Assembly (NCBI GenBank): GCA_029838195.1
Contig: JALGVJ010000017.1
Span: 1 to 64,000, forward strand
Length of the DNA: 64,000 nt
Source of the DNA: Promethearchaeota archaeon
Lineage (GTDB): Archaea; Asgardarchaeota; Lokiarchaeia; Sigyniarchaeales; SOKP01
Reading direction: 5' to 3'
Below the pieces are notes generated by a model. It made no database searches. It was not told the origin of the DNA and saw only the letters and a program-made list of their open reading frames with translations. Positions 3,167-16,859 of the stretch are shown in pieces (the first letter of the stretch is position 1; each line of letters begins with the position of its first letter). Both the position numbers and the translations under genes were made by a program.

Positions 3167-3952
3167 TTATTTAAATTTTTGGATAAATTCGTGTAATGGT
3201 TGAAAGTATTCTTTTTCATGAGAGAAAATATCATTATGTCCAGCACCTTCGATTAAAATTAGTTTTTTTTCGATGGTATTGGGAAGCGAAGTAAAAATTA
3301 GTTCTGCTTCACTTTTAGGAATGATCCAATCTAGCGTGCCGTGGATTATCAATACGGGCATTTGTATTCTTCTCATTCTTGTATCATTAGAATATGGTTC
3401 CAAAGATTCGGGAGTGATTCGAGGATCGTTGATCCGAAAAAGTCTCGTCATCATATTATATGCACTTGCGAAGCTACTTTCGAAAATAATTCCTTTTAGG
3501 TCACTGGGATTTTGAGCTCCAATTTCCGCGGCACATGTACTCCCTAAAGACCGCCCTTCAACGAATAGAGAACCATTAAATTCATTTTTTCGCATCCATT
3601 CTATAAATTTTTGATACACGGGAAACGCATCAGCATATAAACTGCTATATGAAGGCTCTCTCGTACTATGTCCGTAGCCTCGAAAATCTATCACGGCTAA
3701 ATTTACGTCTATTTTAAAAAAAAGGTGATAAAAATATTGATAATCCAGCGCAATTTCTCCATTTCCGTGAAAAAATAAGATATTAGGGAGTTGCTTATCT
3801 TTCTTGTAAATATACCCGCCTATTCTTACATTATCATGGATTTTAAAGGTTAAAGGTTCCACGTGCGATTTTAAATTATTGGGTATGGGGGCTTTCCTTG
3901 GGAAAAAAACCACATTAGAAATGCGGGGATCATCAATGAACGGTTTTTCCAT
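3167..3952 (-). CDS. Alpha/beta hydrolase (ABHD13/17/BEM46-like)
   Basis: FFHGNGE, DFRGYGHS, nucleophile elbow GRSLG, IHGTLD, GAGHND triad motifs. Confidence 0.9.
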   Translation of the reverse strand: MEKPFIDDPRISNVVFFPRKAPIPNNLKSHVEPLTFKIHDNVRIGGYIYKKDKQLPNILFFHGNGEIALDYQYFYHLFFKIDVNLAVIDFRGYGHSTREPSYSSLYADAFPVYQKFIEWMRKNEFNGSLFVEGRSLGSTCAAEIGAQNPSDLKGIIFESSFASAYNMMTRLFRINDPRITPESLEPYSNDTRMRRIQMPVLIIHGTLDWIIPKSEAELIFTSLPNTIEKKLILIEGAGHNDIFSHEKEYFQPLHEFIQKFK

Positions 3953-4026
3953 GATATTAATTCAAAAAATGATTGTTAATAAAAATATTGTTGGTAAAAA
4001 GGAATATCGCATGCGATGATTAAATA

Positions 4027-4773
4027 TTATTTGGCTTTTCCTTGAGCGATTACGGCTTCCGTGGCTTTTTTAATTTTTTCAGGATCGCCGAGATAATAAT
4101 GTTTTATCGGCTTCAAATTCTCATCGAGCTCATAAATCAAGGGAATCCCCGTGGGAATGTTAAGTTCTACAATCTCATCCTCCGGTATTTCATCTAAAAT
4201 CTTGACTAAAGCTCGCAAACTATTTCCATGAGCCGAAATCAACACTCGCTTACCTTTCTTGATGCATGGAGCAATGGCATCTTCCCAATACGGTAAGAAT
4301 CTTTTAACCGTATCTTTAAGGCTTTCTGTCAGGGGAATTTCATCGGGTTTTAAATTTTTATATCGTCGATCATGGCCGGGATATCGTGGGTCTGTAGTTT
4401 TTAAAGATGGAGGGGGAACATCATAACTTCTACGCCAGATTAAAACTTGCTCCTCGCCTACTTCTTTGGCAAGCTTCGATTTATACAGTCCTTGCAGGGC
4501 GCCGTAATGTCTTTCGTTTAATCGCCATGAGCGGTATACGGGAATCCACATGAGATCCATTTCTTCTAACACGATCCATAACGTTTTTATTCCCCGTTTT
4601 AAAAAAGAAGTAAATGCAACGTCAAACGTGAACTGTTCTTTTTTTAACCATCGTGCGGCTTCCTTAGCTTCTTCACGACCTTTTTCTGTTAAGCCCACAT
4701 CAGTCCAGCCCGTAAACCGATTTTCCTTATTCCAAACACTTTCTCCATGTCTTAATAAAACCAAAACATGCAT
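4027..4773 (-). CDS. gpmA: 2,3-bisphosphoglycerate-dependent phosphoglycerate mutase
   Basis: [48 protein letters not shown]. Confidence 0.97.
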
Positions 4774-5020
4774 ATTATCACTTTTTTTATAGGAATGGCA
4801 TTAGTCCTTTTTTATTGAAGGTACCTACCATTAATGAATTCTTCTGAGATAGAAGTATTCTTGCTTCCAAAAAAATTTATGTTAAATTCATTGGCAAGTG
4901 GAAATTTCAAAATTTTTTTCCACTTCATCCTGCTAATGCTCTTGATTTTGGTAAAAGATTTTTAAAAATGTCAAGTATTAATAAATCTTAGGTTGAATTA
5001 TAAATCCACGTGAATAAAAA

Positions 5021-5698
5021 ATGATTAAAGAAGGGATTTTAAAAGGGAGTGACAGAAAAGAAGAAAATTGGGTAAAAGTTAAACCCGCCTTAAGAGAACC
5101 TTTTCAGAAGGCTCTCGATCGGTTCAAAACAGACGTCTTGGAACGAGAAGATTTTGACCCCACTTCTTTATTACAATTCGGGTTGTTCATGTCTTTAGGC
5201 ATTATTAACGTGTTAAAACTGGCGGAAAAAGAATTGGGCACTAAAGGGCAAGAAATCGTCTCTAAAGCATTAATTGAGGCAGGGTATGAAGTAGGGAGGC
5301 AAATGATCGACCTAGATGAAATTCCAAAAGACATCTCCGATATAGAATTAATGAGTTTTCTGGCTACCATAATAAATACTCAAGCTTGGACGTCTATAGA
5401 AGCTCCAGTGATTGAGAATGAAGACCAATGTTCGTTCGATATTTTATGGTGTCCCCTACAAGACATTTATTCTGCTTTTGATTGTAGAGTTCAAAGATAT
5501 TTCGTCCAAGGAATCGTGAATTATTTTAGAGATCACGTATTTAAATCGGATTTTCAAATTGAATTTAAATCTACGATTCCCGCTGGGGCGAAAACGTGTA
5601 AATTCATTATTTCTCGAAAAAAACCCGAAGAAGCCGATAAATGGGAAAGTTACTCGAAAACCTTGGAACGCAAGGCTCTTGAACGAGCCAAGAAATAA
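5021..5698 (+). CDS. V4R / L-2-amino-thiazoline-4-carboxylate hydrolase-like ligand-binding protein
   Basis: Cys pattern ILWCP...FDC...IPAGAKTCKF typical of V4R-type domains. Confidence 0.6.
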   Translation: MIKEGILKGSDRKEENWVKVKPALREPFQKALDRFKTDVLEREDFDPTSLLQFGLFMSLGIINVLKLAEKELGTKGQEIVSKALIEAGYEVGRQMIDLDEIPKDISDIELMSFLATIINTQAWTSIEAPVIENEDQCSFDILWCPLQDIYSAFDCRVQRYFVQGIVNYFRDHVFKSDFQIEFKSTIPAGAKTCKFIISRKKPEEADKWESYSKTLERKALERAKK

Positions 5699-5831
5699 TT
5701 TCCTTTAAAAACGATCTTTTTTCACTTTTAGATAATCCCTGAATATTTTTTTCAATATTAACGGAAATATATCAAAAAAATTTAAGATATAACAAATCAT
5801 TAATTAGAATAAACAACTATTTCGATTAAAA

Positions 5832-7862
5832 ATGAATGATACATATTCAGGAGAAGAACTCCGTAATCTTCCCTTTCATGACATGAATCTCCCTTTAGAA
5901 GAAAGAGTGGAAGATCTTCTTAAAAGACTCACATTAGAAGAAAAATTTAAATTATGTGCGGGAAAACAGTTATGGTTTACAAAACCCATCAAACGATTAG
6001 GAATTCCTTCCTTCAAGATGACTGATGGGCCTCACGGCATTGCTCCTCATAGTTCAAACAATAAGGAATGCACGTATTTTCCTACTGCTATTTGTCGTGC
6101 ATCTACTTGGAATCCTTCGCTTTTAGAACACTTTGGCGTGGCTTTAGCTGAAGAGGTGAGGGAAATTGGATATCACATGATTTTGGGGCCGGGAATAAAC
6201 ATTCAACGCACGCCCATGTGCGGAAGAACCTTTGAATATCAAACGGAAGATCCGTATCTAAATTCCAAGCTTGCTGTTGCTACTGTCAAGGGAATCCAAA
6301 GCCAGAGAATAGCGGCCTGTGTAAAACATTATGCTTGTAATAATCAAGAAACAAATCGCTTTACCTATAGTGCCGAAGTGTCTGAACGGGCCTTACAAGA
6401 GATTTATTTACCCGCTTTTAGAGCAACTGTAATAGAAGCGGATGCTTGGTCGTTCATGAGCTGTTATAATAAAGTTAATGGCGTTTATGGGTCTGAAAGT
6501 GAAGATCTCATCAAAAAGCGATTAATGGGAGAATGGGGCTTTCGAGGGTTTGTTGTTTCAGATTGGGGCGCTAGTTCTAATTGTACGAGCACAGAAAGCT
6601 GCATTAAAGCAGGATTGAGTTTGGAAATGCCACGACCAATTTTATATAAAGATAAAAAACTTAAAAAAGCATTTAACGAAGGAAAATTCTCAATTGAAGC
6701 GCTAGATGATAACATTCGTAGGCTTTTGCGGGTAATGTTTTTAACGGGAATGTTTGATGATCCTGCCACTCTTCCAAGCGGTAAGAGAAATACGCCAGAA
6801 CATCAAGAATTAGCACGACGAATTGCTGAGGAAGGATTAGTTCTTTTAAAGAACCAAGGAGGATTATTGCCACTTGATCTAAATGCGATAAATAAAATTG
6901 CTATTTTGGGTCCTAATGCTGACAAGAAAATGGCGGAAGGAGGTGGTAGCTCACAAGTAAAACCACCTCATGAAATCACTCCTTTGGAAGCTCTTAAACA
7001 AAAATGTGGCTCTAAAATAGTAGTTAATTCCGATCCTTCTGACGCAGATGTTGCTCTTATTTTTGCTGGCTTAAATCATGAAAGAGAAATGGATGCAGAA
7101 GGAATTGATAAGAAATCTTTTCATTTGCCCCAAGATCAAGTCGAGTTAATAAAAGAAACAGCGAAAAAAAACCCTAAAACCATTGTAGTTCTAATTATTG
7201 GAAGTCCCGTGAGCATGATTGAGTGGATAGATGACGTCCCAGTAGTACTTATTCCATGGTATGCGGGCATGGAAGCCGGCTATGCGATAACAAACATTTT
7301 ATTCGGTGAGGTAAATCCTTCCGGAAAGCTCCCAATTACTTTTCCAAAAAATCTTTCTGATTCTCCCGCACATCAATCCCATGAAACATATCCGGGCAAC
7401 GAAAAAGTGTTATATAAAGAGGGAGTTTTTGTAGGCTATCGCCATTTCGATACAAGAGGGATAGAGCCTCTTTTTCCTTTCGGATATGGATTATCCTACA
7501 CGAATTTCACGTGTGAAAACATATCGCTCAGTAGCAATTCATTGAAAAAAGGAGAAACTCTTACTATAGCCGTTGATGTAATCAATACGGGAGATCGAGA
7601 GGGAGCTGAAGTGGTTCAATTATATTTACAAGACGCCGAATCTAGCGTGGAAAGACCACTAAAAGAGCTAAAAGGATTTAGTAAAGTCTTTTTAAACCCT
7701 AAAGAAAAGAAGACTGTTCAATTCACTCTTACAGAACAAGATTTAAGTTTCTTCGACGAGAAAAGCATGATCTGGAAATCAGAACCCGGAACATTTAAAG
7801 TTCTTATCGGAAATTCTTCTAAAAATATATTACAACAAGCAGAATTTGAATATATTGAGTGA
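5832..7862 (+). CDS. Glycoside hydrolase family 3 beta-glucosidase/xylosidase with Fn3-like C-terminus
   Basis: TDGPHG, GRTFEY..EDP, KHYACN, nucleophile VVSDWG, NPSGKLPITFP, PFGYGLSY, EVVQLY, KELKGF. Confidence 0.96.
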   Translation: MNDTYSGEELRNLPFHDMNLPLEERVEDLLKRLTLEEKFKLCAGKQLWFTKPIKRLGIPSFKMTDGPHGIAPHSSNNKECTYFPTAICRASTWNPSLLEHFGVALAEEVREIGYHMILGPGINIQRTPMCGRTFEYQTEDPYLNSKLAVATVKGIQSQRIAACVKHYACNNQETNRFTYSAEVSERALQEIYLPAFRATVIEADAWSFMSCYNKVNGVYGSESEDLIKKRLMGEWGFRGFVVSDWGASSNCTSTESCIKAGLSLEMPRPILYKDKKLKKAFNEGKFSIEALDDNIRRLLRVMFLTGMFDDPATLPSGKRNTPEHQELARRIAEEGLVLLKNQGGLLPLDLNAINKIAILGPNADKKMAEGGGSSQVKPPHEITPLEALKQKCGSKIVVNSDPSDADVALIFAGLNHEREMDAEGIDKKSFHLPQDQVELIKETAKKNPKTIVVLIIGSPVSMIEWIDDVPVVLIPWYAGMEAGYAITNILFGEVNPSGKLPITFPKNLSDSPAHQSHETYPGNEKVLYKEGVFVGYRHFDTRGIEPLFPFGYGLSYTNFTCENISLSSNSLKKGETLTIAVDVINTGDREGAEVVQLYLQDAESSVERPLKELKGFSKVFLNPKEKKTVQFTLTEQDLSFFDEKSMIWKSEPGTFKVLIGNSSKNILQQAEFEYIE

Positions 7863-8036
7863 ACGGATTCTAATGCTCCACTCTTTAATTTTTTTTAAAA
7901 AGATGTTTTACTTTTTATTTTTTTTCGATTAATATATGATATAATGGAGGATTTACCTTTTATTAATTGGAAGGAATTCTCCTTTACTGGTAAAAAGTTG
8001 AAGTTGTTAAATTTTCCATTGTCCATCTTGAAAAAT
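7532..8036. repeat. Left copy of ~0.5-kb imperfect direct repeat (GH3 3' end, intergenic region, remnant of aminopeptidase 3' end)
   Basis: Begins TAGCAATTCATTGAAAAAAGGAGAAA and ends GTTGTTAAATTTTCCATTGTCCATCTTGAAAAAT; matches 10304-10814. Confidence 0.95.
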
Positions 8037-8039
8037 GAG

Positions 8040-9119
8040 TCATAAATCAATTCTATTTTCAAATTTTAACAACAAGTTATCAGTCTTAAATTCTAAAATC
8101 ATTTTAGCAAGAAAGTCTCGATGGCAAAAATGTTTTTGTAATTTGTTTGGCCTCGGAAATTGTTCCATACACATGAAGCAGCATCTTCCATTCTCTTTAA
8201 GGAAGCTTATAAATTCTTCGAGTTTAAAAGAATTTTTTTCTAAATGCCAATCATACCATTTCTTAAAACATTCGTGAGAAAGATAACCCTCGATATATGG
8301 AGCTCTTATTATATATTCAACTCCCAATTCGGGCTTATGAATATAATTTATCTTTAACTTTTGAAATTCACGTTTGAGGATTTCAGAATTAAATTCTGGT
8401 TTGTTACTACTCTGTCCTGATTGACGAATGTCAATGAGCGTATTTATTTTATTTTCTTGAAGTATTTTGATTAATTCATCTAAGTTTTTTCCTTGATAAC
8501 CAATAGTAAATATGGTTTTATTTTCGAATTTCTTGAGTGCTTCTCTCGAGTCATTGATACTGAGATTTTTTTCTAGGATATAGGCAAGAAAATTATCTTG
8601 GTCTTTCTTTGAGAGTTTTGATAACAAGACAGCATGGGTTGTTGTAATTTTTTCCTCCTTGAGCGCGTCTTGTACTTTTTTTGAAACATCTAGGATTAAG
8701 GCTAATCGATTACTGACCCAAGCTTGACTTTTACCGAGCATTTTTGCGACCTCGCTCTGAGTATATCCAAAATCATCAATAATTCTTTTAATAGCTTTTC
8801 CTTCTTCAATATCCGTAAGATTTTTTTGAAGGAAATTGGTTTTAATTGATAATATTGCTGCCATAGAATCTTCCACATCTAAAATTTTAGCTTCAATCTC
8901 ATCCCAGCCTAATTTTTCTACTGCTCTTAACCTATGTCCACCAGAAATTAACTCATAATCTCCATTTTTTAAGTTCCTTACTAAAATTGGATTCCATAAT
9001 CCATCTTTTTTTATACTTTCTGCTAATTCGTTTAAATATTCCTCATCAACGACATCTCGTGGATCGTATTTTGAAAACTTAATCTTATTTAGCTTGATTT
9101 TCATTTTTCTCTTTTTCAA
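8040..9119 (-). CDS. ParB/Srx-HTH protein fused to a C-terminal DUF488 domain
   Basis: ParB: LAESIKKDGLWNPILVR, LISGGHRLRA; HTH TQSEVAKMLGKSQAWVSNRL; DUF488: IFTIGYQG, LIDIR, YIHKPELG, FMCME...CHR. Confidence 0.88.
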   Translation of the reverse strand: MKKRKMKIKLNKIKFSKYDPRDVVDEEYLNELAESIKKDGLWNPILVRNLKNGDYELISGGHRLRAVEKLGWDEIEAKILDVEDSMAAILSIKTNFLQKNLTDIEEGKAIKRIIDDFGYTQSEVAKMLGKSQAWVSNRLALILDVSKKVQDALKEEKITTTHAVLLSKLSKKDQDNFLAYILEKNLSINDSREALKKFENKTIFTIGYQGKNLDELIKILQENKINTLIDIRQSGQSSNKPEFNSEILKREFQKLKINYIHKPELGVEYIIRAPYIEGYLSHECFKKWYDWHLEKNSFKLEEFISFLKENGRCCFMCMEQFPRPNKLQKHFCHRDFLAKMILEFKTDNLLLKFENRIDL

Positions 9120-9165
9120 ACCTCATTATTTTATATAATTAATAATTTTATTTCTCATTTACGGT

Positions 9166-9981
9166 TTATTTTAAGAAAGCATTTAAACTCAGATCCTTTC
9201 GTTTAGGAGGATAAAATAGCCCAATTATGAACCAAGTATTAAATCTATTATGAGTTCCTAAAATGAAATATAAATCTCTATTTTTCATCCAATCTTCATA
9301 TCTTTCTTTTAATTTTTCTTCTAAATGAACTGGATTAATATATTGATTTCTCCATTTTCTAAATGATTCAAGGAGTTCCCAATCTGTACATATCATATTA
9401 TGACCAGAACAATTTTCTCCATAACAATTAAAGCTATAATAAAATATATTTTCTATTTTATCAACTTTTTTTAATTTTTCACCAAAAAGATTTATTTGAA
9501 TGCTTTCAGCAATGTCAATATCAATCTTTTCAATAGGTTTTTTAAGTCTAAATTTCACAGAATCTATTTTGGGTTTAATTAGACCCAATGAAGTCCGATC
9601 TTCATTAGCTTTCTTCTTTAATATTTCAACCGAATCAGAAAGAGTTTTGATTAAAATATTTCTTCTTTTATCCCATACACCTTTTTTTTTAGGATCTACT
9701 AAATCTTTATTAGTGATTTCAATGGTAGAATCTCTTATCTTGAACGACTCTTTTCTTCTTAGCATTTCTTTTGTATTCTTCTTTATTTGGGCTTTGAAAA
9801 ATACAAATTTTTTTAAGGGTTTCGCATTATATGAATTGAAATTTATAGGATAAATCCTTACCCAGGTATTTGAATCCTTCAAAATACCAGCAGTGCAAAC
9901 TGTATTTCCATACTTTTTACTCCTTTCGGGATATGTTTTAACTACCAATAAAATTTCCTTTTCTTCCCAACTCAAATCCAA
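9166..9981 (-). CDS. Conserved hypothetical protein, dual-OB-fold-like DUF488 partner
   Basis: VKTYP.RSKKY..TVCTAG, WVRIYP, SLGLIKP, C...C.GH...CTDWE, DLYFILGT, WFIIGLFYPP; co-oriented upstream of the DUF488 fusion. Confidence 0.6.
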   Translation of the reverse strand: MDLSWEEKEILLVVKTYPERSKKYGNTVCTAGILKDSNTWVRIYPINFNSYNAKPLKKFVFFKAQIKKNTKEMLRRKESFKIRDSTIEITNKDLVDPKKKGVWDKRRNILIKTLSDSVEILKKKANEDRTSLGLIKPKIDSVKFRLKKPIEKIDIDIAESIQINLFGEKLKKVDKIENIFYYSFNCYGENCSGHNMICTDWELLESFRKWRNQYINPVHLEEKLKERYEDWMKNRDLYFILGTHNRFNTWFIIGLFYPPKRKDLSLNAFLK

Positions 9982-10303
9982 TCATCTCTTTTTAATTTTA
10001 TAATAAAAGCAATTTATAGAATAAAAATTAAAACCCAGTTGAAATTTTTTTAATTATCTTGATATCGTTCCTATTTTTGAATTTGTTAAGAAGGATAATT
10101 TTTTTAAAGATTGTTTCGCAAATGAAATCTTTATTAATATTTTAACTAAAGAACATTAATATTTTTGAATTTTGTATCAATTTAATTTTAAGAGCAATTT
10201 GCGAATTAGGAACTGGGTTTGCTTCAATCCAAGTATAATTTGACCTGATTTCATAAAATACATGTTCAAAATAATTATAGATTATAGTTATTTTTAAATA
10301 GAA

Positions 10304-10814
10304 TAGCAATTCATTGAAAAAAGGAGAAATCCATACTATGTCCGTTGATATAATAAATATGGAAGATCGAGGGGAAGCTGAAGTGGTTCAATTATATTTA
10401 CAGGACGTCGAGTCTAGCGCGGAAAGACCACTAAAAGAGCTAAAAGGATTCAATAAAATCTTTTTACAACCAAAAGAAAGAAAGTCCTTTCAATTCACTC
10501 TTACAGAACAAGATTTAAGTTTCTTCGACGAGAAAAGCATGATCTGGAAATCAGAACCAGGAACATTTAAAGTTCTTATCGGAAATTCCTCTAGAAGCAT
10601 ATTCCAACAAGCGGAATTTGAATATATTGAGTGAACGGATTCTAATGCGCCACTATTTAATTATTTTTAAAAAGATTTTTTACTTTTTATTTTTATTACC
10701 CATAAAATTATTGAATAATATGAAGGGGGATTTACCTTTTTTAAATGAAAGAATCCCTTTTTTACTGCTAAAAAATGGATGTTGCTAAATTTTCCATTGC
10801 CCCTCTTGATAAAT
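10304..10814. repeat. Right copy of ~0.5-kb imperfect direct repeat
   Basis: Matches 7532-8036, including an identical core of about 70 bp (CAATTCACTCTTACAGAACAAG...AAATCAGAACC). Confidence 0.95.
10314..10634 (+). pseudogene. 5'-truncated duplicate of the GH3 C-terminal Fn3-like domain
   Basis: 106 aa closely match the last ~106 aa of 5832..7862; homology begins abruptly at 10304. Confidence 0.88.
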
Positions 10815-11894
10815 TACTTTACCATCAGCAATAATTTTTGAACCGGGAACTTTCATGTCTTTAATGAGATCCCAATGAATGCTTGATACATTTTTGGAGC
10901 CTGTCTCGGAATAACCACTCCCGATGGCACAATGAATGGTTCCCCCTAGTTTTTCATCAAACAAAATGTTTTTGGAGAAGCGCGTGATTCCATGATTCAT
11001 TCCAATAGCAAATTCCCCCATGATGTTGGCATTTTCGATGGTTAATAATTCTTTTAACAACTCCTCTCCTTTCGTAGCAGTAGCTTTTATCACCTTGCCA
11101 TTTTGAAATTCTAAATAGACATTTTCGATTTCTCTTCCATTATATATACCCGGATACGTGAATCTAATATGCCCATTCACGGAATCTTCCACCGGCCCGG
11201 TAAATATTTCTCCATCCGGCAGGTTTTTCAAGCCACAACAATTTATCCAAGTTCTTCCTTTTACGGATAACGATAGCTCTGTGTCTTCTCCTAATACTTG
11301 CAGGTCATTAACGGTATTTAAAAAAGAGACAATTTGTTCTTGCTTTTCCCCCAATTTTTGCCATTCCAAGATCGGATTTTCCTTATCTAAAAATAAAGCC
11401 TTTTCTACAAAGTCGAAATATGAATCGAGGTCCATGCTCGCTTCTTGCGCGTGTGCTTCACAAGGAAACGGCACGACCGTCCATCTTAATTCTCCCTTAG
11501 CAGACCGCTCTTGAAAAATCTTGCTCAATTCTTTACGGGCTGGAGCTCCTCTAAATTTAGCAAGGACTTTTGGATCTATTAAACTAAATCTACGTGTATT
11601 ATAATCGGCATGAATTCGAATAAACCCATTAAATTCCTCATGGATTGCTTTTGTTAATTTATCTACGTATAATAATTGTTCTTCTGAAGCATGCTTGAAG
11701 AAAAGCTCTTGAATGCCTTCAATTTCGATGTCTAACCAAGGATGTCCTCCAGCTTTCAAGATTTCAACAAATAGTGCTTGAATGAATTCCTTTGCCAGTG
11801 CTGGCCCCATGATGCGCACTCTATCTTCCTTTTTCACTTCCAGAGAATAATTCACGACTAACTTTGCGAGTTTTCGAAAAAATGGATTTAACAT
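10785..11894 (-). CDS. Aminopeptidase, M29 family (AmpS/AmpT)
   Basis: NLPDGEIFTGP, GEFAIG, ILFDEKLGGTIHCAIG, SSIHWD. Confidence 0.95.
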   Translation of the reverse strand: MLNPFFRKLAKLVVNYSLEVKKEDRVRIMGPALAKEFIQALFVEILKAGGHPWLDIEIEGIQELFFKHASEEQLLYVDKLTKAIHEEFNGFIRIHADYNTRRFSLIDPKVLAKFRGAPARKELSKIFQERSAKGELRWTVVPFPCEAHAQEASMDLDSYFDFVEKALFLDKENPILEWQKLGEKQEQIVSFLNTVNDLQVLGEDTELSLSVKGRTWINCCGLKNLPDGEIFTGPVEDSVNGHIRFTYPGIYNGREIENVYLEFQNGKVIKATATKGEELLKELLTIENANIMGEFAIGMNHGITRFSKNILFDEKLGGTIHCAIGSGYSETGSKNVSSIHWDLIKDMKVPGSKIIADGKVIYQEGQWKI

Positions 11895-12364
11895 TTTTAC
11901 ATGGCCCCAGTTAATAATTCATGAGAAATATAATTAATAAAAATACTTCTCCCATATATATTAATATTGTTTGCTCAATAATTATGGATTTCTATTTCTT
12001 TTTATCTATCCTAATTGATTATATTATTTTTTTGAATCGAATTTCTTTTTCCGTGAGATCGTGCTAAATCAAAAAGAATTAATACTAATTTCTAATAAAA
12101 AATCTTCCTCATTTTTCGCCATCGAAGCCATTGCCATGGCCTTGCTTGTCAGATAGAATGAAATACTAATTTCTGCTTTAAAAATCTAAAAATTGATACA
12201 TGGAATGAAGGCTTCCACCTACAAATTTTATCTTACTAGAATTTCGCAAAATATTTAAATTTAAATGAGAAAATCAAACGGATATTTCCCATGTTTGCTT
12301 GCTCTTTAAAGTTGTCATTTCTAAAATTTATAGTTAGAGAAAAAAGAAAAAAAAAAGGAGTAAT

Positions 12365-13786
12365 TTATTTCTGATTCTTCATGAGCTCTTTCAATTTTTT
12401 GTGTTTTTCTTCGTGCATTTTTAATATTTCTTTTTGAATTTTAGCCCAATACTCTCCTTTTAAGGGGTAAAATTGAAGAATCAATACTTCTAATAATAAT
12501 GCTATGCCCGGAATGAGTCCAATGAATAATCTAATAGCGAATAAAGCTGCTGCGGGCTGTAAATCTGGGCGCGCGATGCCGCCCGTTTGGCTCCTTGGGA
12601 TGAACCCAGTAGCGGCCAATAATGCCACAGGAATGGCCAAAGCAAGACTCTGAGCAGGCTTTGTAATCAATGCATTTACTCCAAAAAACATGGCTTCCCG
12701 CCGAACGCCCGTGCGCACTTCATCTTCATCCGCAACTTGAGCAAATAGAAGATTTGTGAAAACAAGTGGACCAACAAATCCAAAACCTGCTATTGCGATG
12801 CTTACAAAGATTAATTCATTAGTGGGCATGAACGTCAACAAGATGAGGCCTATTCCCCCTAGTATTAAAAGCAATTGATCGGCTCGTACCACATCGAATT
12901 TTTCAATCAGCTTAGGTGTAATCCAAATTCCTACAAGCAACGGAATGAATACAAATAAAATAAGAATAATTGAAGAGGTTTGAGTGACATAGTCGCCTAA
13001 ATAAAATAGCGAGCCGAGAATCAAGGATTGGAGGAGGATGCTCATGAAATTGGCAACGACAGCAATGATAAACGCCTTGCTTTTAAAGGTAAATTTTATC
13101 ATATCAATCATTCCTAAAGGCTCATCAACAATCGTGAATTCTGGTCTTTCTTTGAATTTATATGTCGTAAAAATGATGAGCGTGCTTCCAATAATGCCCA
13201 CGGCGATCATAGACATGCGCAAAGGAAGGAGGGATGCTTGATGACGAAACAGGTCGGGAATAATGAAGCCAAAAATCGTACCTATTAAACCTAGAAAGGA
13301 GCTTATTACTTGAAGTCCATTCCTTTCCTTTTCATCTTCAGTTATCTCAGGCAGGAGGGCAGAGAAGACGAGGAAAATGATGGTATATGCCGTATCATAG
13401 AGGAGCATGGTAATTAACATCCACCAAAAAAGTTGCATTTCAGAAAAACTCGGATCAGCAAACCATACCAAAATAAAGAATATCCCCAAAAAAGGAGCAG
13501 TATAACGCATGAAAGGGATTCGACGTCCTTTCTTTGATTTTGTTTTATCTGAAATGACACCAAATAAAGGATCGTTGATTGCGTTCCATATGGCATAGAT
13601 TATGGAGACAATATAGATAATTCCTGCATTTTCGACAAGACCAAGATAATCGGTGTAAAATATGGGGAGTAAACTAGCATAAATGCCCGAAATTATAGAA
13701 CCACCTAAACTGGCAAATCCCCAATAAAAGCGCTCCTTAATCGTGAATTTTCTGGGTCCCATGGTTTCTGTAGACGCATTTTCCAT
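12365..13786 (-). CDS. MFS transporter, GPH (glycoside-pentoside-hexuronide) family
   Basis: WNAINDPLFGVISDKT...GRRIPF, DEDEVRTGVRREAMFFG, about 12 TM helices, terminal FYPL. Confidence 0.93.
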   Translation of the reverse strand: MENASTETMGPRKFTIKERFYWGFASLGGSIISGIYASLLPIFYTDYLGLVENAGIIYIVSIIYAIWNAINDPLFGVISDKTKSKKGRRIPFMRYTAPFLGIFFILVWFADPSFSEMQLFWWMLITMLLYDTAYTIIFLVFSALLPEITEDEKERNGLQVISSFLGLIGTIFGFIIPDLFRHQASLLPLRMSMIAVGIIGSTLIIFTTYKFKERPEFTIVDEPLGMIDMIKFTFKSKAFIIAVVANFMSILLQSLILGSLFYLGDYVTQTSSIILILFVFIPLLVGIWITPKLIEKFDVVRADQLLLILGGIGLILLTFMPTNELIFVSIAIAGFGFVGPLVFTNLLFAQVADEDEVRTGVRREAMFFGVNALITKPAQSLALAIPVALLAATGFIPRSQTGGIARPDLQPAAALFAIRLFIGLIPGIALLLEVLILQFYPLKGEYWAKIQKEILKMHEEKHKKLKELMKNQK

Positions 13787-13918
13787 TTTTCATGACCTTT
13801 TTAATTTTTTAAATAATTATGTAGATTTTATTGTACTTAACTTTATTCACTTTTATATAAATTTTCGCTTTTTTTAATAATAATAAATTTTCTACGAATC
13901 ACAATATCATGGGATTTT

Positions 13919-14728
13919 TTAAGGTATTAAGCCTAATTCTTTAGGTGTTGGAAGATAATGCTCTCTGGGAGGACCACTCATGCGCTTTACAATATAACAA
14001 TAAATTAATTCATGTTTTAATTTTTTAATTGAATTCTCATTTGGTTTGAACTCAACTTTCCTAAATCCTTCAGCGAGATACGGAGCCGTATGGATCATTC
14101 TCGAATAATAATATATTCCTCTTATAAGTTTTAAATATTTTAAACCAAGTGGACTTATTTGAGAAGCGTGTTTTGATAGAGCTTCCATTTGAATGGATAA
14201 ATCTTTAATGGTGATATAAAAATTAGGATTAAATGAATGATATAAGAGAAGGAGGGGTCTTTGGAAAGGTTTCATGGATTTAATTGCTACATAAACCAAC
14301 CATCCAGTATGGAGATGATCGGGATGTAAATCTAAGGAAAAGAAACTATCGGGTGCGATTACCACGTGAGGCTTGAGGTTTAAAATTAATGTCTTAAGTT
14401 TTAAAAACACCCGTTTATTAAAAGGAAGATACCCATCTATTTCACCGAACCAAATCAAATTTATTTTTGGCTTGCCATCAAGTTTAGTTCCGTAGGCTTT
14501 TGCGGCTTCTCTCATCTCATGTTTCCGTATTCGTCTAATTCTTTTTCCTTTAAAATCATTTCTGGAGGTGCCATACTCATCCGACGTCATTAAAACTTCA
14601 TGGACTTCCCATCCTAAATCTAGTGCTTGCTTGATGGTACACGCACATGTAAATTCCGCATCATCAGGATGAGGATTGATGATTAGCAATTTCATTATTT
14701 TGGATTTATTTTGCGTGTTTTTTAACAT
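13919..14728 (-). CDS. PIG-L/LmbE family deacetylase
   Basis: NPHPDDAE, R..E...A, HPDH, HASQ. Confidence 0.9.
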   Translation of the reverse strand: MLKNTQNKSKIMKLLIINPHPDDAEFTCACTIKQALDLGWEVHEVLMTSDEYGTSRNDFKGKRIRRIRKHEMREAAKAYGTKLDGKPKINLIWFGEIDGYLPFNKRVFLKLKTLILNLKPHVVIAPDSFFSLDLHPDHLHTGWLVYVAIKSMKPFQRPLLLLYHSFNPNFYITIKDLSIQMEALSKHASQISPLGLKYLKLIRGIYYYSRMIHTAPYLAEGFRKVEFKPNENSIKKLKHELIYCYIVKRMSGPPREHYLPTPKELGLIP

Positions 14729-14935
14729 GTTATAAACCCTTTAGTCTATTTGAGTCTAATCTATAAATTACAATGATTTTATTAAATTAGAGGTAAGAAT
14801 TATAAGCTTTTAAAATTTTGATAACATGCGAGAGTAAATATTCAAGATTATTAATTTGAATTGGTATTTTCTTTTCATGAAAAGTAAAATTTTAAAATAA
14901 ATATGAATGAAAATATTAAATATTTTCCAATTTAA

Positions 14936-15373
14936 ATGCACGTCTTTATCATAAAAGCTGAAGATCACATTAAACGTTATCTAAGGATGAAATCTACAAT
15001 TAATGAATTATTAAAAAAACCTCTTTTAAAACGTGATCATGCATCAATTTTAATTCTTATTCATTGGGCTTCTTATCATTTAGTGTCAACAATCATTGAT
15101 CAATTATTAATACCCGAAAAATTGAAACATAGAAATCATCGAGGAATTAAAAAGACACTTAAAGATACAGAAATAATGAAAATTCTTGGAAAAGATGCCA
15201 ACAAGATTTTGAAATTGTATAATTTATTAGAAATGGATTTTTCTTCAAAATTCCAATATGGATATATTAATAATATTCCGGATTATAGTAGAGTAATTCA
15301 AATTTTAAGAGAATTAGAGGAAATTTGTAAAAAAATTACAAAAAAGGTGCAAAAAGAAGTTGGAAAAAATTAA
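14936..15373 (+). CDS. HEPN-like protein (UPF0332-type), partner of MNT
   Basis: Predicted all-helical 145 aa; WASYH...RNHRG...FQY pattern; overlaps the downstream MNT gene by 14 nt. Confidence 0.6.
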   Translation: MHVFIIKAEDHIKRYLRMKSTINELLKKPLLKRDHASILILIHWASYHLVSTIIDQLLIPEKLKHRNHRGIKKTLKDTEIMKILGKDANKILKLYNLLEMDFSSKFQYGYINNIPDYSRVIQILRELEEICKKITKKVQKEVGKN

Positions 15374-15806
15374 AATTAACAATTCTCGGCTAATTATTGA
15401 CTTAACACCCATTAAAACATTTGCTGAAAAAATTGGAAAAAGATATCCTTTTCTTCTCTCAATTTATTTATATGGAAGCGTGGCTCGGGGAGATGCTGAT
15501 AAAGAGAGCGATATTGACATTTTAATTATAGCAGAGGGAAATCCTTCTGAAATTTATTTGATATTATTTAAAGATGAAGATTATAAAAACTTAGAAGATT
15601 GGGCTTTTGAAATTGTTGAAGGAGGCCTGAGTATACTTATTTGTAATGAAAAAGAAATAACTCAACATTTCGATACATTAATTAATAAAATTCTGATAGA
15701 GGGCATTTTATTACATGGAACAAATCTTGAAGTAATTTTAAGTAAATATCCTACAAAACATGATGCTCATGAATCGAATTTATTGGATCTCATGAAAACA
15801 TTATAG
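15360..15806 (+). CDS. Minimal nucleotidyltransferase (MNT)
   Basis: IYLYGSVARGDADKESDIDILII signature; C-terminal EGILL. Confidence 0.92.
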   Translation: MEKIKINNSRLIIDLTPIKTFAEKIGKRYPFLLSIYLYGSVARGDADKESDIDILIIAEGNPSEIYLILFKDEDYKNLEDWAFEIVEGGLSILICNEKEITQHFDTLINKILIEGILLHGTNLEVILSKYPTKHDAHESNLLDLMKTL

Positions 15807-16025
15807 AAAATAAATCAAATATTTTTTAATTATTTACTTTAATCATATTAATGAAATTTCTTCAAAACTCTTGTAGATAATTCTATATAAATCGAATAAG
15901 ATTAGATTTTGAACGGAATTTTAGAATATTATAGAAATCATTTCACTTTTATCCGAAAGAATAAAATAATAACAATATCAAATTTATTATTTTAAATTGA
16001 TTAACATCATCTCGAGGAGTTTTTC

Positions 16026-16859
16026 ATGAATGATAAAAAATTAAGTATTATGGCGATTTTTGCTCATCCGGATGACCTGGCATTTTCTTGCGCGGGCACT
16101 TTAGCGCGGTGGGCAGAAGAAGGGCATGAGATTCATGCAATTTGCGTCACGACTGGAAATGTCGGCACGTTAAGAACGGATTTAACTTTAGATGACGTGG
16201 CCCAAATGCGAGAGAAAGAATTACGAGCTTCTAATGAAATTCTCGGAATTAAAAATACTATCATGTTAGGATATCCTGATGGAGGATTCATTGATGGAAA
16301 GAAACTTCGTAAGGAGTTGATATATCATATTCGAGCCTTAAAGGCGGATCGGGTCGTAACGTTTGATCCTTGGCAAAAATACGAAGTCCATCCGGATCAC
16401 ATGATGGTAGGAAGAATGGCAGCGGAAGCGGCCGCTTTTGCCGCATTTCCCTTACTTTATCCCGATCAAATAAAGGGAGGAGTATCCCCTTATTCTTGCT
16501 CGGAAGTATGGTTCATGGGTATATTAGGCCACGCACCTAACATGTATGTGGATATATCTTCCACCTTCCAAAAAAAGGTGGAATCAGCATTAAAGTTTGA
16601 AGCAACATTAACCCTCTTGGCAGATCTCTTTGCGCCTAATATTGACCCCGCCAATGTTTCACCTAAAGAACTCAAAAAATTAACAAAATACGCCCAAAGA
16701 TTACTTCGTTCCATGGCGATAGCCATTGGGAAAAAAGTAAACTTAGAGGTTGCGGAATGCTTTTTCATGCAGAAAACGCTTCCCGGTCATTTCGATAATT
16801 TTCAAATGCTCATGAGCGAAATGTTAGGAAATCCACCCGAAAAACCAAAAGTAATTTGA
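16026..16859 (+). CDS. PIG-L/LmbE family deacetylase
   Basis: FAHPDD, REKEL, LGYPDG, HPDH, VDIS. Confidence 0.92.
   Translation: MNDKKLSIMAIFAHPDDLAFSCAGTLARWAEEGHEIHAICVTTGNVGTLRTDLTLDDVAQMREKELRASNEILGIKNTIMLGYPDGGFIDGKKLRKELIYHIRALKADRVVTFDPWQKYEVHPDHMMVGRMAAEAAAFAAFPLLYPDQIKGGVSPYSCSEVWFMGILGHAPNMYVDISSTFQKKVESALKFEATLTLLADLFAPNIDPANVSPKELKKLTKYAQRLLRSMAIAIGKKVNLEVAECFFMQKTLPGHFDNFQMLMSEMLGNPPEKPKVI

Follow-up and report, generated by a model that had tools for sequence, protein, structure and literature searches.

Within a 64,000-nucleotide stretch of the genome of a Promethearchaeota archaeon (assembly GCA_029838195.1, contig JALGVJ010000017.1, positions 1 to 64,000; the window in what follows), a two-gene cassette encodes a fusion of ParB_N, HTH_ParB and DUF488 domains together with a partner protein built of two predicted oligonucleotide/oligosaccharide-binding (OB) folds. 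This gene pair very probably belongs to the PDC-M19-type family; PDC-M19 is a phage defense candidate (PDC) of PADLOC-DB v2 in which M19A is a DUF488 protein and M19B a double-OB protein (Payne et al., bioRxiv 10.1101/2024.01.29.577857). The cassette is horizontally acquired, patchy and mobile, and it is not specific to the Asgard archaea. Our tentatively favored reading of the whole is that it represents an archaeal, ParB-targeted variant of the PDC-M19 module that may act on DNA ends or against invading elements; we are far less sure of such a role against viruses or elements, and of the DNA-end mechanism, than of the family membership. A preliminary description of this DNA had presented the pair as a candidate new DNA repair or defense system, and the claim that it is new has to be withdrawn, as the DUF488 and DuOB-type pair is PDC-M19 of PADLOC and the fusion, with its CTP binding, appears in a survey of the ParB-CTPase fold (Kaljevic et al., PNAS 2025, PMC12704722). 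Both halves are therefore already catalogued. We found no text that links PDC-M19 with the ParB fusion or describes a ParB-headed PDC-M19, and none of the searchable full texts contains the terms 'PDC-M19' or 'DuOB'.

The fusion protein and its double-OB partner

The fusion open reading frame (ORF) occupies positions 8040 to 9119 on the minus strand and encodes 359 residues when read from a TTG at 9119. An identical (100%) database protein and all homologs are about 354 residues long and begin with MKIK, and the true start is therefore likely to be the ATG at 9104, which would give 354 residues and leave the first five ORF codons untranslated; residue numbers here follow the 359-residue ORF. 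Pfam profiles match a ParB_N domain of the CTPase fold (residues 7-94, positions 8838-9101, E 9e-20), an HTH_ParB DNA-binding domain with a helix-turn-helix (HTH) (residues 100-198, positions 8526-8822, E 8e-22) and a catalytic-type DUF488 domain (PF04343; residues 213-340, positions 8100-8483, E 4e-15), the last with 57 bits against a gathering cut-off of 22.2. The protein also matches the NCBIfam model TIGR00180 (parB_part) with 128 bits against a cut-off of 58. Its motifs are GGHRLRA (60-66), TIGY (205-208), DIR (230-232), ELG (264-266), CME (317-319) and CHR (332-334). The partner gene lies on the same strand at positions 9166-9981, separated from the fusion by 46 bp, and encodes 271 residues with the motifs VCTAG (28-32), WVRIYP (40-45), SLGLIKP (131-137), C-x4-C-x2-H-x3-C (186-198) and DWE (200-202). 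The two minus-strand genes, the succession of ParB, Spo0J-type HTH and DUF488 domains and every motif named for either protein in the preliminary description were thus recovered. That account had allowed that the C-terminus might not be DUF488 and that the fusion might be an assembly join; the former is answered by the Pfam match above cut-off, and the latter can be dismissed, as at least 53 protein clusters contain the fusion and several archaeal phyla carry it.

The ParB portion closely follows known members of its family. The 200 N-terminal residues align over their full length with structures of Noc and Spo0J/ParB at 32-37% identity (36% to Noc), and structure comparison returns a Z score of 15 to Spo0J and, for the HTH part, 11.8 to the parS-bound DNA-binding domain of a ParB. 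With the canonical ParB, Noc and KorB clamps the window fusion shares the CTPase fold at its N-terminus and the HTH, but it lacks their C-terminal dimerization domain, ParA and ParA-binding peptide, and in addition tethers an enzyme domain. Bacterial ParBs among the homologs carry the dimerization domain (PF23552) and the fusions do not; in the fusion Pfam gave no match to it and DUF488 directly follows the HTH domain. The Box II P-motif also differs, GGHRLRA aligning to GERRWRA where canonical ParB has GERRxRA, and only G60, R63 and A66 are invariant across 40 homologs.

The survey of the ParB-CTPase fold lists an archaeal 'DUF488-HTH' fusion among five CTP-binding proteins, and binding of CTP by this ParB-CTPase-HTH-DUF488 protein was demonstrated with the differential radial capillary action of ligand assay (DRaCALA) (PMC12704722). 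That fusion has the same architecture as the one described here and a very similar Box I helix (EEYIDELAKSIKAD there and EEYLNELAESIKKD here, nearly identical), and by analogy with this archaeal homolog the window fusion is predicted to bind CTP as well. The survey is silent on the double-OB partner, on the link with PDC-M19 and on function.

The fold of the DUF488 part was assigned from an AlphaFold2 model of the whole fusion (pLDDT 91), in which residues 200-359 form a compact alpha/beta domain. Beyond ParB, its best structural matches are Cys-dependent protein tyrosine (PTP) and dual-specificity phosphatases (Z 7-7.5, root-mean-square deviation about 3.4 Å), and it also resembles the N-domain of tetrapyrrole/diphthine-type methylases. 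As Z scores of about 7-8 are middling, the likeness to phosphatases is best held at the level of the fold. A PDB sequence search with the fusion returned no solved DUF488 structure. The candidate catalytic residues, GY, D230-x-R232, C317-x-E319 and C332-H333-R334, are invariant in the fusions and in stand-alone DUF488 proteins with the same type of partner. Common to the domain and to the PTP and dual-specificity phosphatases are the alpha/beta fold and a strand-end Cys followed by an Arg at a helix N-terminus; the C-x5-R(S/T) loop of those enzymes, however, is not found in DUF488, where C317 and R334 are separated by 16 residues and the motif reads C-H-R. The Pfam sister families 'Active DUF488-N3 subclade' (DUF488-N3a) and 'PTP-NADK' agree with a phosphatase-like classification. 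Burroughs & Aravind in 2023 reportedly assigned DUF488, within the rhodanese-phosphatase superfamily, to a RapZ-C/DUF488/DUF4326 clade and predicted a role in DNA-end processing. The thiol-dependent enzyme of the preliminary description and the abasic-site crosslinking that it proposed to assay find no support here; the fold resembles that of Cys-phosphatases.

The partner had been described as a dual-OB-like protein, and its predicted structure bears this out. Pfam and NCBIfam profiles gave no match to the 271-residue sequence. An AlphaFold2 model from 53 homologs (pLDDT 92.8, pTM 0.89) contains a first OB fold (about residues 1-110) that matches SSB, PriB and RPA domains at Z about 7 and a second (113-261) that matches RPA70 DBD-C and Teb1 OB-C at Z 6.3, and over its full length it is similar to RPA and to the tandem-OB domains of HIN-200 proteins (Z 6-7, Foldseek probability 1.0). 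Two OB folds are shared with RPA70 DBD-C, SSB and HIN-200, but sequence identity to these is only 5-13%, and a PDB sequence search with the partner profile found nothing. Predicted-structure clusters annotated as Pfam DuOB (PF22557) are matched at TM 0.68-0.75. Against the DuOB gathering score of 27 bits, homologs of the partner score 25.7-28.4 and the window protein gives no match, which places it in a family related to DuOB, at or beyond the edge of the profile. Clustering at 50% leaves 3,444 representatives of this large family.

Binding of single-stranded DNA (ssDNA) by the partner is predicted from its OB folds. The Cys/His cluster at 186-198 is positioned like the zinc ribbon of RPA70 and is not universal in the family, whereas R42, R76, S79, D200 and E202 are invariant, a pattern that hints that the partner may do more than bind passively. 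A predicted complex of the DUF488 domain (residues 196-359) with the partner scored 0.00 and is evidence neither way.

Conservation of the pair and probable membership in the PDC-M19 family

The association of the two genes is strict. Full-length fusions number 13 copies in 12 of 400 Asgard species genomes, and each of the 13 has an adjacent double-OB gene on the same strand. A scan of one genome per prokaryotic species extended this to 22 of 22 intact fusions across archaea, with the partner either upstream or downstream, so that the gene-pair conservation called for in the preliminary description is found at every intact fusion examined. These 22 come from Asgard, Bathyarchaeia, Thermoplasmatota, Methanomassiliicoccales, Halobacteriales, Methanoregulaceae, Methanosarcina sp. 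KYL-1, Desulfurococcales and Acidilobaceae. Confinement of the fusion to Asgard, suggested by named hits that were all from that group, is ruled out by its presence in at least seven other archaeal lineages, and in the same scan the ParB-headed form was met only in archaea. Pairwise distances of fusion and partner are correlated (r = 0.58, 0 of 2000 Mantel permutations), which would fit inheritance of the two as a unit, with the reservation that relatedness inflates such tests.

Some copies are decaying. In one (L043, G165:C110:1506-2568) the fusion is split into two overlapping ORFs and no partner gene was detected in the genome; another (G179:C11:3828-4211) is a fragment of DUF488 interrupted in frame by TGA and TAG stop codons. 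Other Asgard families contain a longer ParB_N-X-DUF488 class of 463-516 residues (L034:2133-3683(-), L035:2261-3652(-) and L036:1328-2752(+)) with a middle region of about 220-260 residues that barely matches HTH_ParB. A double-OB gene adjoins the first two of these, and the genome of the third (G297) gave no partner match. The existence of this class suggests that DUF488 acquired a ParB head on more than one occasion or that the heads have diverged far from each other. At several loci, including L026 (G195:C45, 1788-4331) and L006 (7081-8554), two or three tandem double-OB paralogs stand beside one fusion, and Heimdall and Hodarchaeales loci (L005, L007 and L024) have an extra, shorter double-OB paralog of 199 residues downstream. 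The cultured isolate Methanosarcina sp. KYL-1 (L061, NZ_VOUA01000002.1, 3001-4866) has an intact fusion with 40% identity and, after it, the partner gene; this copy is a possible experimental system.

Membership in PDC-M19 rests on both genes. The PADLOC profile PDC-M19B (PDLC04508) matches the partner with E 2.3e-51 over positions 3-268 of 269, and PDC-M19A matches the DUF488 part with E 1.4e-26, although only over positions 136-287 of 294. Archaeal DUF488 proteins of 288/289 residues match PDC-M19A over positions 1-285, and the window fusion can therefore be described as PDC-M19A with a ParB and HTH head swapped in, a variant rather than a canonical member. It has in common with PDC-M19 the partner family, the DUF488 domain with its invariant C-x-E...CHR, D and R, and the strict adjacency of the genes. 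It differs in that the N-terminal ~135 profile positions of PDC-M19A (the Panacea-like head of the 288-residue form) are unmatched and replaced by ParB_N and HTH_ParB over about 200 residues, and in a 7-residue insertion between C-x-E and CHR.

The DUF488 and double-OB pair is widespread in bacteria, and in all five non-fusion contexts that were examined the DUF488 gene stands beside the OB gene. The DUF488 protein in such contexts is a bare domain of 139-150 residues (bacteria), a 177-residue form with a weak MazE/AbrB-like head, or a 288/289-residue form with a weak Panacea-like head. The Pfam matches to these heads are below threshold (Panacea E 6e-4, MazE/AbrB E 2e-3), and PADLOC adds a match to a DarG region. 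Since the enzyme and OB core thus occurs in bacteria with a Panacea-like head, an AbrB/MazE-like head or no head, the ParB and HTH portion is best regarded as a head that can be exchanged and that serves targeting or regulation. In a single set of near-identical Nitrospirota-type contigs (L001-L003; L001 6841-7641), and there only, a QueC/Asn-synthase-like gene comes after the pair on the same strand; its family is also found in the Qat defense system.

Members of the family also reside on mobile elements. Partner homologs were found on 24 plasmids, 11 of them conjugative, and include one next to an integrase on Sulfolobus pSOG2; the 168-residue gene that follows the OB gene on that plasmid was considered as a DUF488 protein and is not detectable as one (hhalign probability 0.3). 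Seven Gordonia phage records, representing five phages, contain further homologs. In phage Eviarto (MH479912.1, L032 3033-5280), gp42 (DUF488, convergent) and gp43 (double-OB) directly adjoin the annotated immunity repressor gp44, near the integrase. The immunity region is the usual place for defenses encoded by prophages. In Methanoperedens plasmids DUF488 is plasmid-specific and is accompanied by RadC, a UvrD/Dna2-like helicase and further genes linked to replication.

The cassette and its genomic setting

The cassette is bracketed by direct repeats of about 510 bp that are approximately 88-90% identical. The left repeat, about 0.5 kb (7530-8037), consists of the tail of a GH3 gene, an intergenic region and a duplicate of the final ~30 nt of an M29 peptidase gene, and the right repeat (10302-10815) holds a GH3 C-terminus remnant (an Fn3-like ORF of 106 residues, 10314-10634) and the authentic 3' end of the M29 peptidase gene, which is convergent with GH3. 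Between the partner gene and the right repeat, an AT-rich, non-coding segment (9982-10301) forms the leader of the minus-strand pair and presumably contains its promoter region. The GC content of the cassette is low (0.26-0.30). This arrangement fits an insertion by homologous recombination with a diverged donor copy. No integrase was found in the cassette or among its annotated neighbors (3167-16859), which comprise GH3, the M29 peptidase, an MFS sugar transporter, PIG-L deacetylases and hydrolases.

The cassette is single-copy in this genome (4.5 Mb, 97% complete), and in the survey of 400 Asgard genomes it was not found in the genome of the same genus (G162). That genome has a GH3 gene only 71% identical and its M29 peptidase gene on another contig, and it is uninformative on the empty site. 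Contigs from hydrothermal-vent metagenomes bridge the left junction in one run and the right junction in two; among these short, low-depth contigs none spans the cassette, and no empty site was seen.

Proposed function and competing explanations

From the domain identities, the constant pairing and the CTP binding of a homolog, we infer a mechanism along the following lines. The ParB_N and HTH domains would bind DNA and CTP and might close or spread on DNA in the manner of ParB-family CTP switches, thereby tethering the C-terminal DUF488 domain, a putative Cys/His/Arg enzyme of the rhodanese-phosphatase fold, to DNA. The RPA-like partner may capture ssDNA or DNA ends as the substrate or the trigger, and the two proteins together would process or mark nucleic-acid ends or intermediates of invading elements. 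The most specific form of this proposal, in which a CTP-gated sliding ParB clamp carries the tethered DUF488 domain along DNA and is triggered by, or hands off to, a double-OB sensor of ssDNA or ends, is doubtful. A role of the pair in defense is plausible and agrees with its patchiness, horizontal spread and decay and with its carriage in a prophage immunity region and on plasmids.

Several observations weigh against this reading. Two residues of GERRxRA, the Glu and the first Arg, are missing from the P-motif, and hydrolysis of CTP may for that reason be impaired. As the ParB C-terminal dimerization domain is absent, a clamp could close only if DUF488 or the partner took over dimerization. 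A search of the cassette for parS-like palindromes returned only imperfect AT-rich inverted repeats. DUF488 is a putative enzyme of phosphatase-like fold, and PDCs, PDC-M19 included, are explicitly candidates only, being predicted from their embedding in BREX, DISARM or type I restriction-modification systems (Payne et al., bioRxiv 10.1101/2024.01.29.577857). The neighbors in the window are GH3, the M29 peptidase, the sugar transporter and PIG-L deacetylases. Around eight Asgard copies, PADLOC picked out only a few single genes among 105 neighbor ORFs, most of which have housekeeping roles. The defense-island enrichment that the preliminary description proposed to test is accordingly not clear around these copies, and the defense role is a candidate label. 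The authors of the PDC set report that embedded systems associate less with other defense genes (Payne et al., bioRxiv 10.1101/2024.01.29.577857), so that the weak neighbor signal weakens a defense role and does not refute it. One neighbor ORF in the group L020-L027, probably the 2551-residue L027:4155-11810, matches the C-terminal TcB-binding domain of the Tc-toxin component TcA (PF18276, E 1e-111).

The alternative that survives best, although we consider it unlikely, is that the pair is an accessory of mobile-element maintenance or DNA metabolism which serves plasmid or virus replication, recombination or end-processing, or counters host defenses, with the chromosomal copies, this one included, as remnants of integrated elements. 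It would account for the homologs on plasmids, including the one beside the pSOG2 integrase, and in Gordonia phages, for the plasmid-specific DUF488 of Methanoperedens among RadC and the UvrD/Dna2-like helicase, and for the insertion of the window cassette between repeats. Plasmid and phage locations do not discriminate, however, because defense systems also ride on mobile elements. Moreover, the Eviarto pair is located in the lysogeny and immunity region and not in a replication module, and here, as at most Asgard loci, the pair is surrounded by housekeeping genes and accompanied by no integrase, replication or conjugation gene.

An addiction or abortive module of the toxin-antitoxin type, in which one protein, either the DUF488 enzyme or the OB protein, is toxic, the other neutralizes it and the ParB and HTH head autoregulates the operon, appears improbable. 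It draws on the small size and mobility of the two-gene unit, on the tight or translational coupling of the genes in non-fusion contexts, where stop and start overlap, and on the antitoxin-type heads of other members (weak Panacea, MazE/AbrB and the PADLOC DarG region). Those antitoxin-domain matches fall below the Pfam cut-offs, however, many pairs have a bare DUF488 protein of 139-150 residues without any DNA-binding head, and a full CTP-binding ParB module would be excess machinery for an autorepressor.

We attach a similarly small probability to accessory repair of host DNA, whereby the pair would scan the chromosome and process damaged ends or gaps to which the OB protein is bound, and would take no part in conflict. 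The combination of an RPA-like partner with a phosphatase-fold enzyme would suit such a task, some copies lie near mutS/mutL or Rad51-family genes, and the neighbors in the window are housekeeping genes. A distribution as patchy as 12 of 400 Asgard species genomes, with absence from the genome of the same genus, is nevertheless difficult to reconcile with it, as are horizontal movement across archaeal phyla, decaying copies such as the split fusion without a partner, and occurrence on phages and plasmids; these features favor accessory or conflict genes over repair.

A centromere-binding ParB for chromosome or plasmid partition, in agreement with the preliminary description, is effectively refuted: the N-terminal 200 residues are bona fide ParB/Noc-type (TIGR00180, 128 bits; 36% identity to Noc), but the fusion has no LG[KR]G ParA-binding motif, none of the nine annotated neighbors from 3167 to 16859 is a parA-type gene, the dimerization domain is replaced by DUF488, the invariable partner is an OB protein and not an ATPase, and chromosomal ParABS is generally missing from archaea (PMC12704722).

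If the sliding-clamp form of the proposal is true, a ParB-family CTP switch would serve as the targeting device of an enzyme in an immune or surveillance mechanism conserved across archaea, including Asgard, and the chemistry of DUF488 would come to light. The module itself, being horizontally mobile and not specific to Asgard, has no bearing on eukaryogenesis. The DUF488 and double-OB families are very widespread and yet of unassigned function, and the ParB-fused form provides a handle on both: it predicts DNA as the site of action and CTP as the switch, and a homolog purifies and binds CTP. The pair is also present in haloarchaeal genomes and in a cultured isolate of Methanosarcina, a genus with genetic tools. 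Solving the function of the pair would assign a role to a large DUF family, test one of the many phage defense candidates in the PDC set and show what ParB-type CTP switches do in archaea. The main value of the ParB-headed pair is as a tractable route to the function of DUF488.

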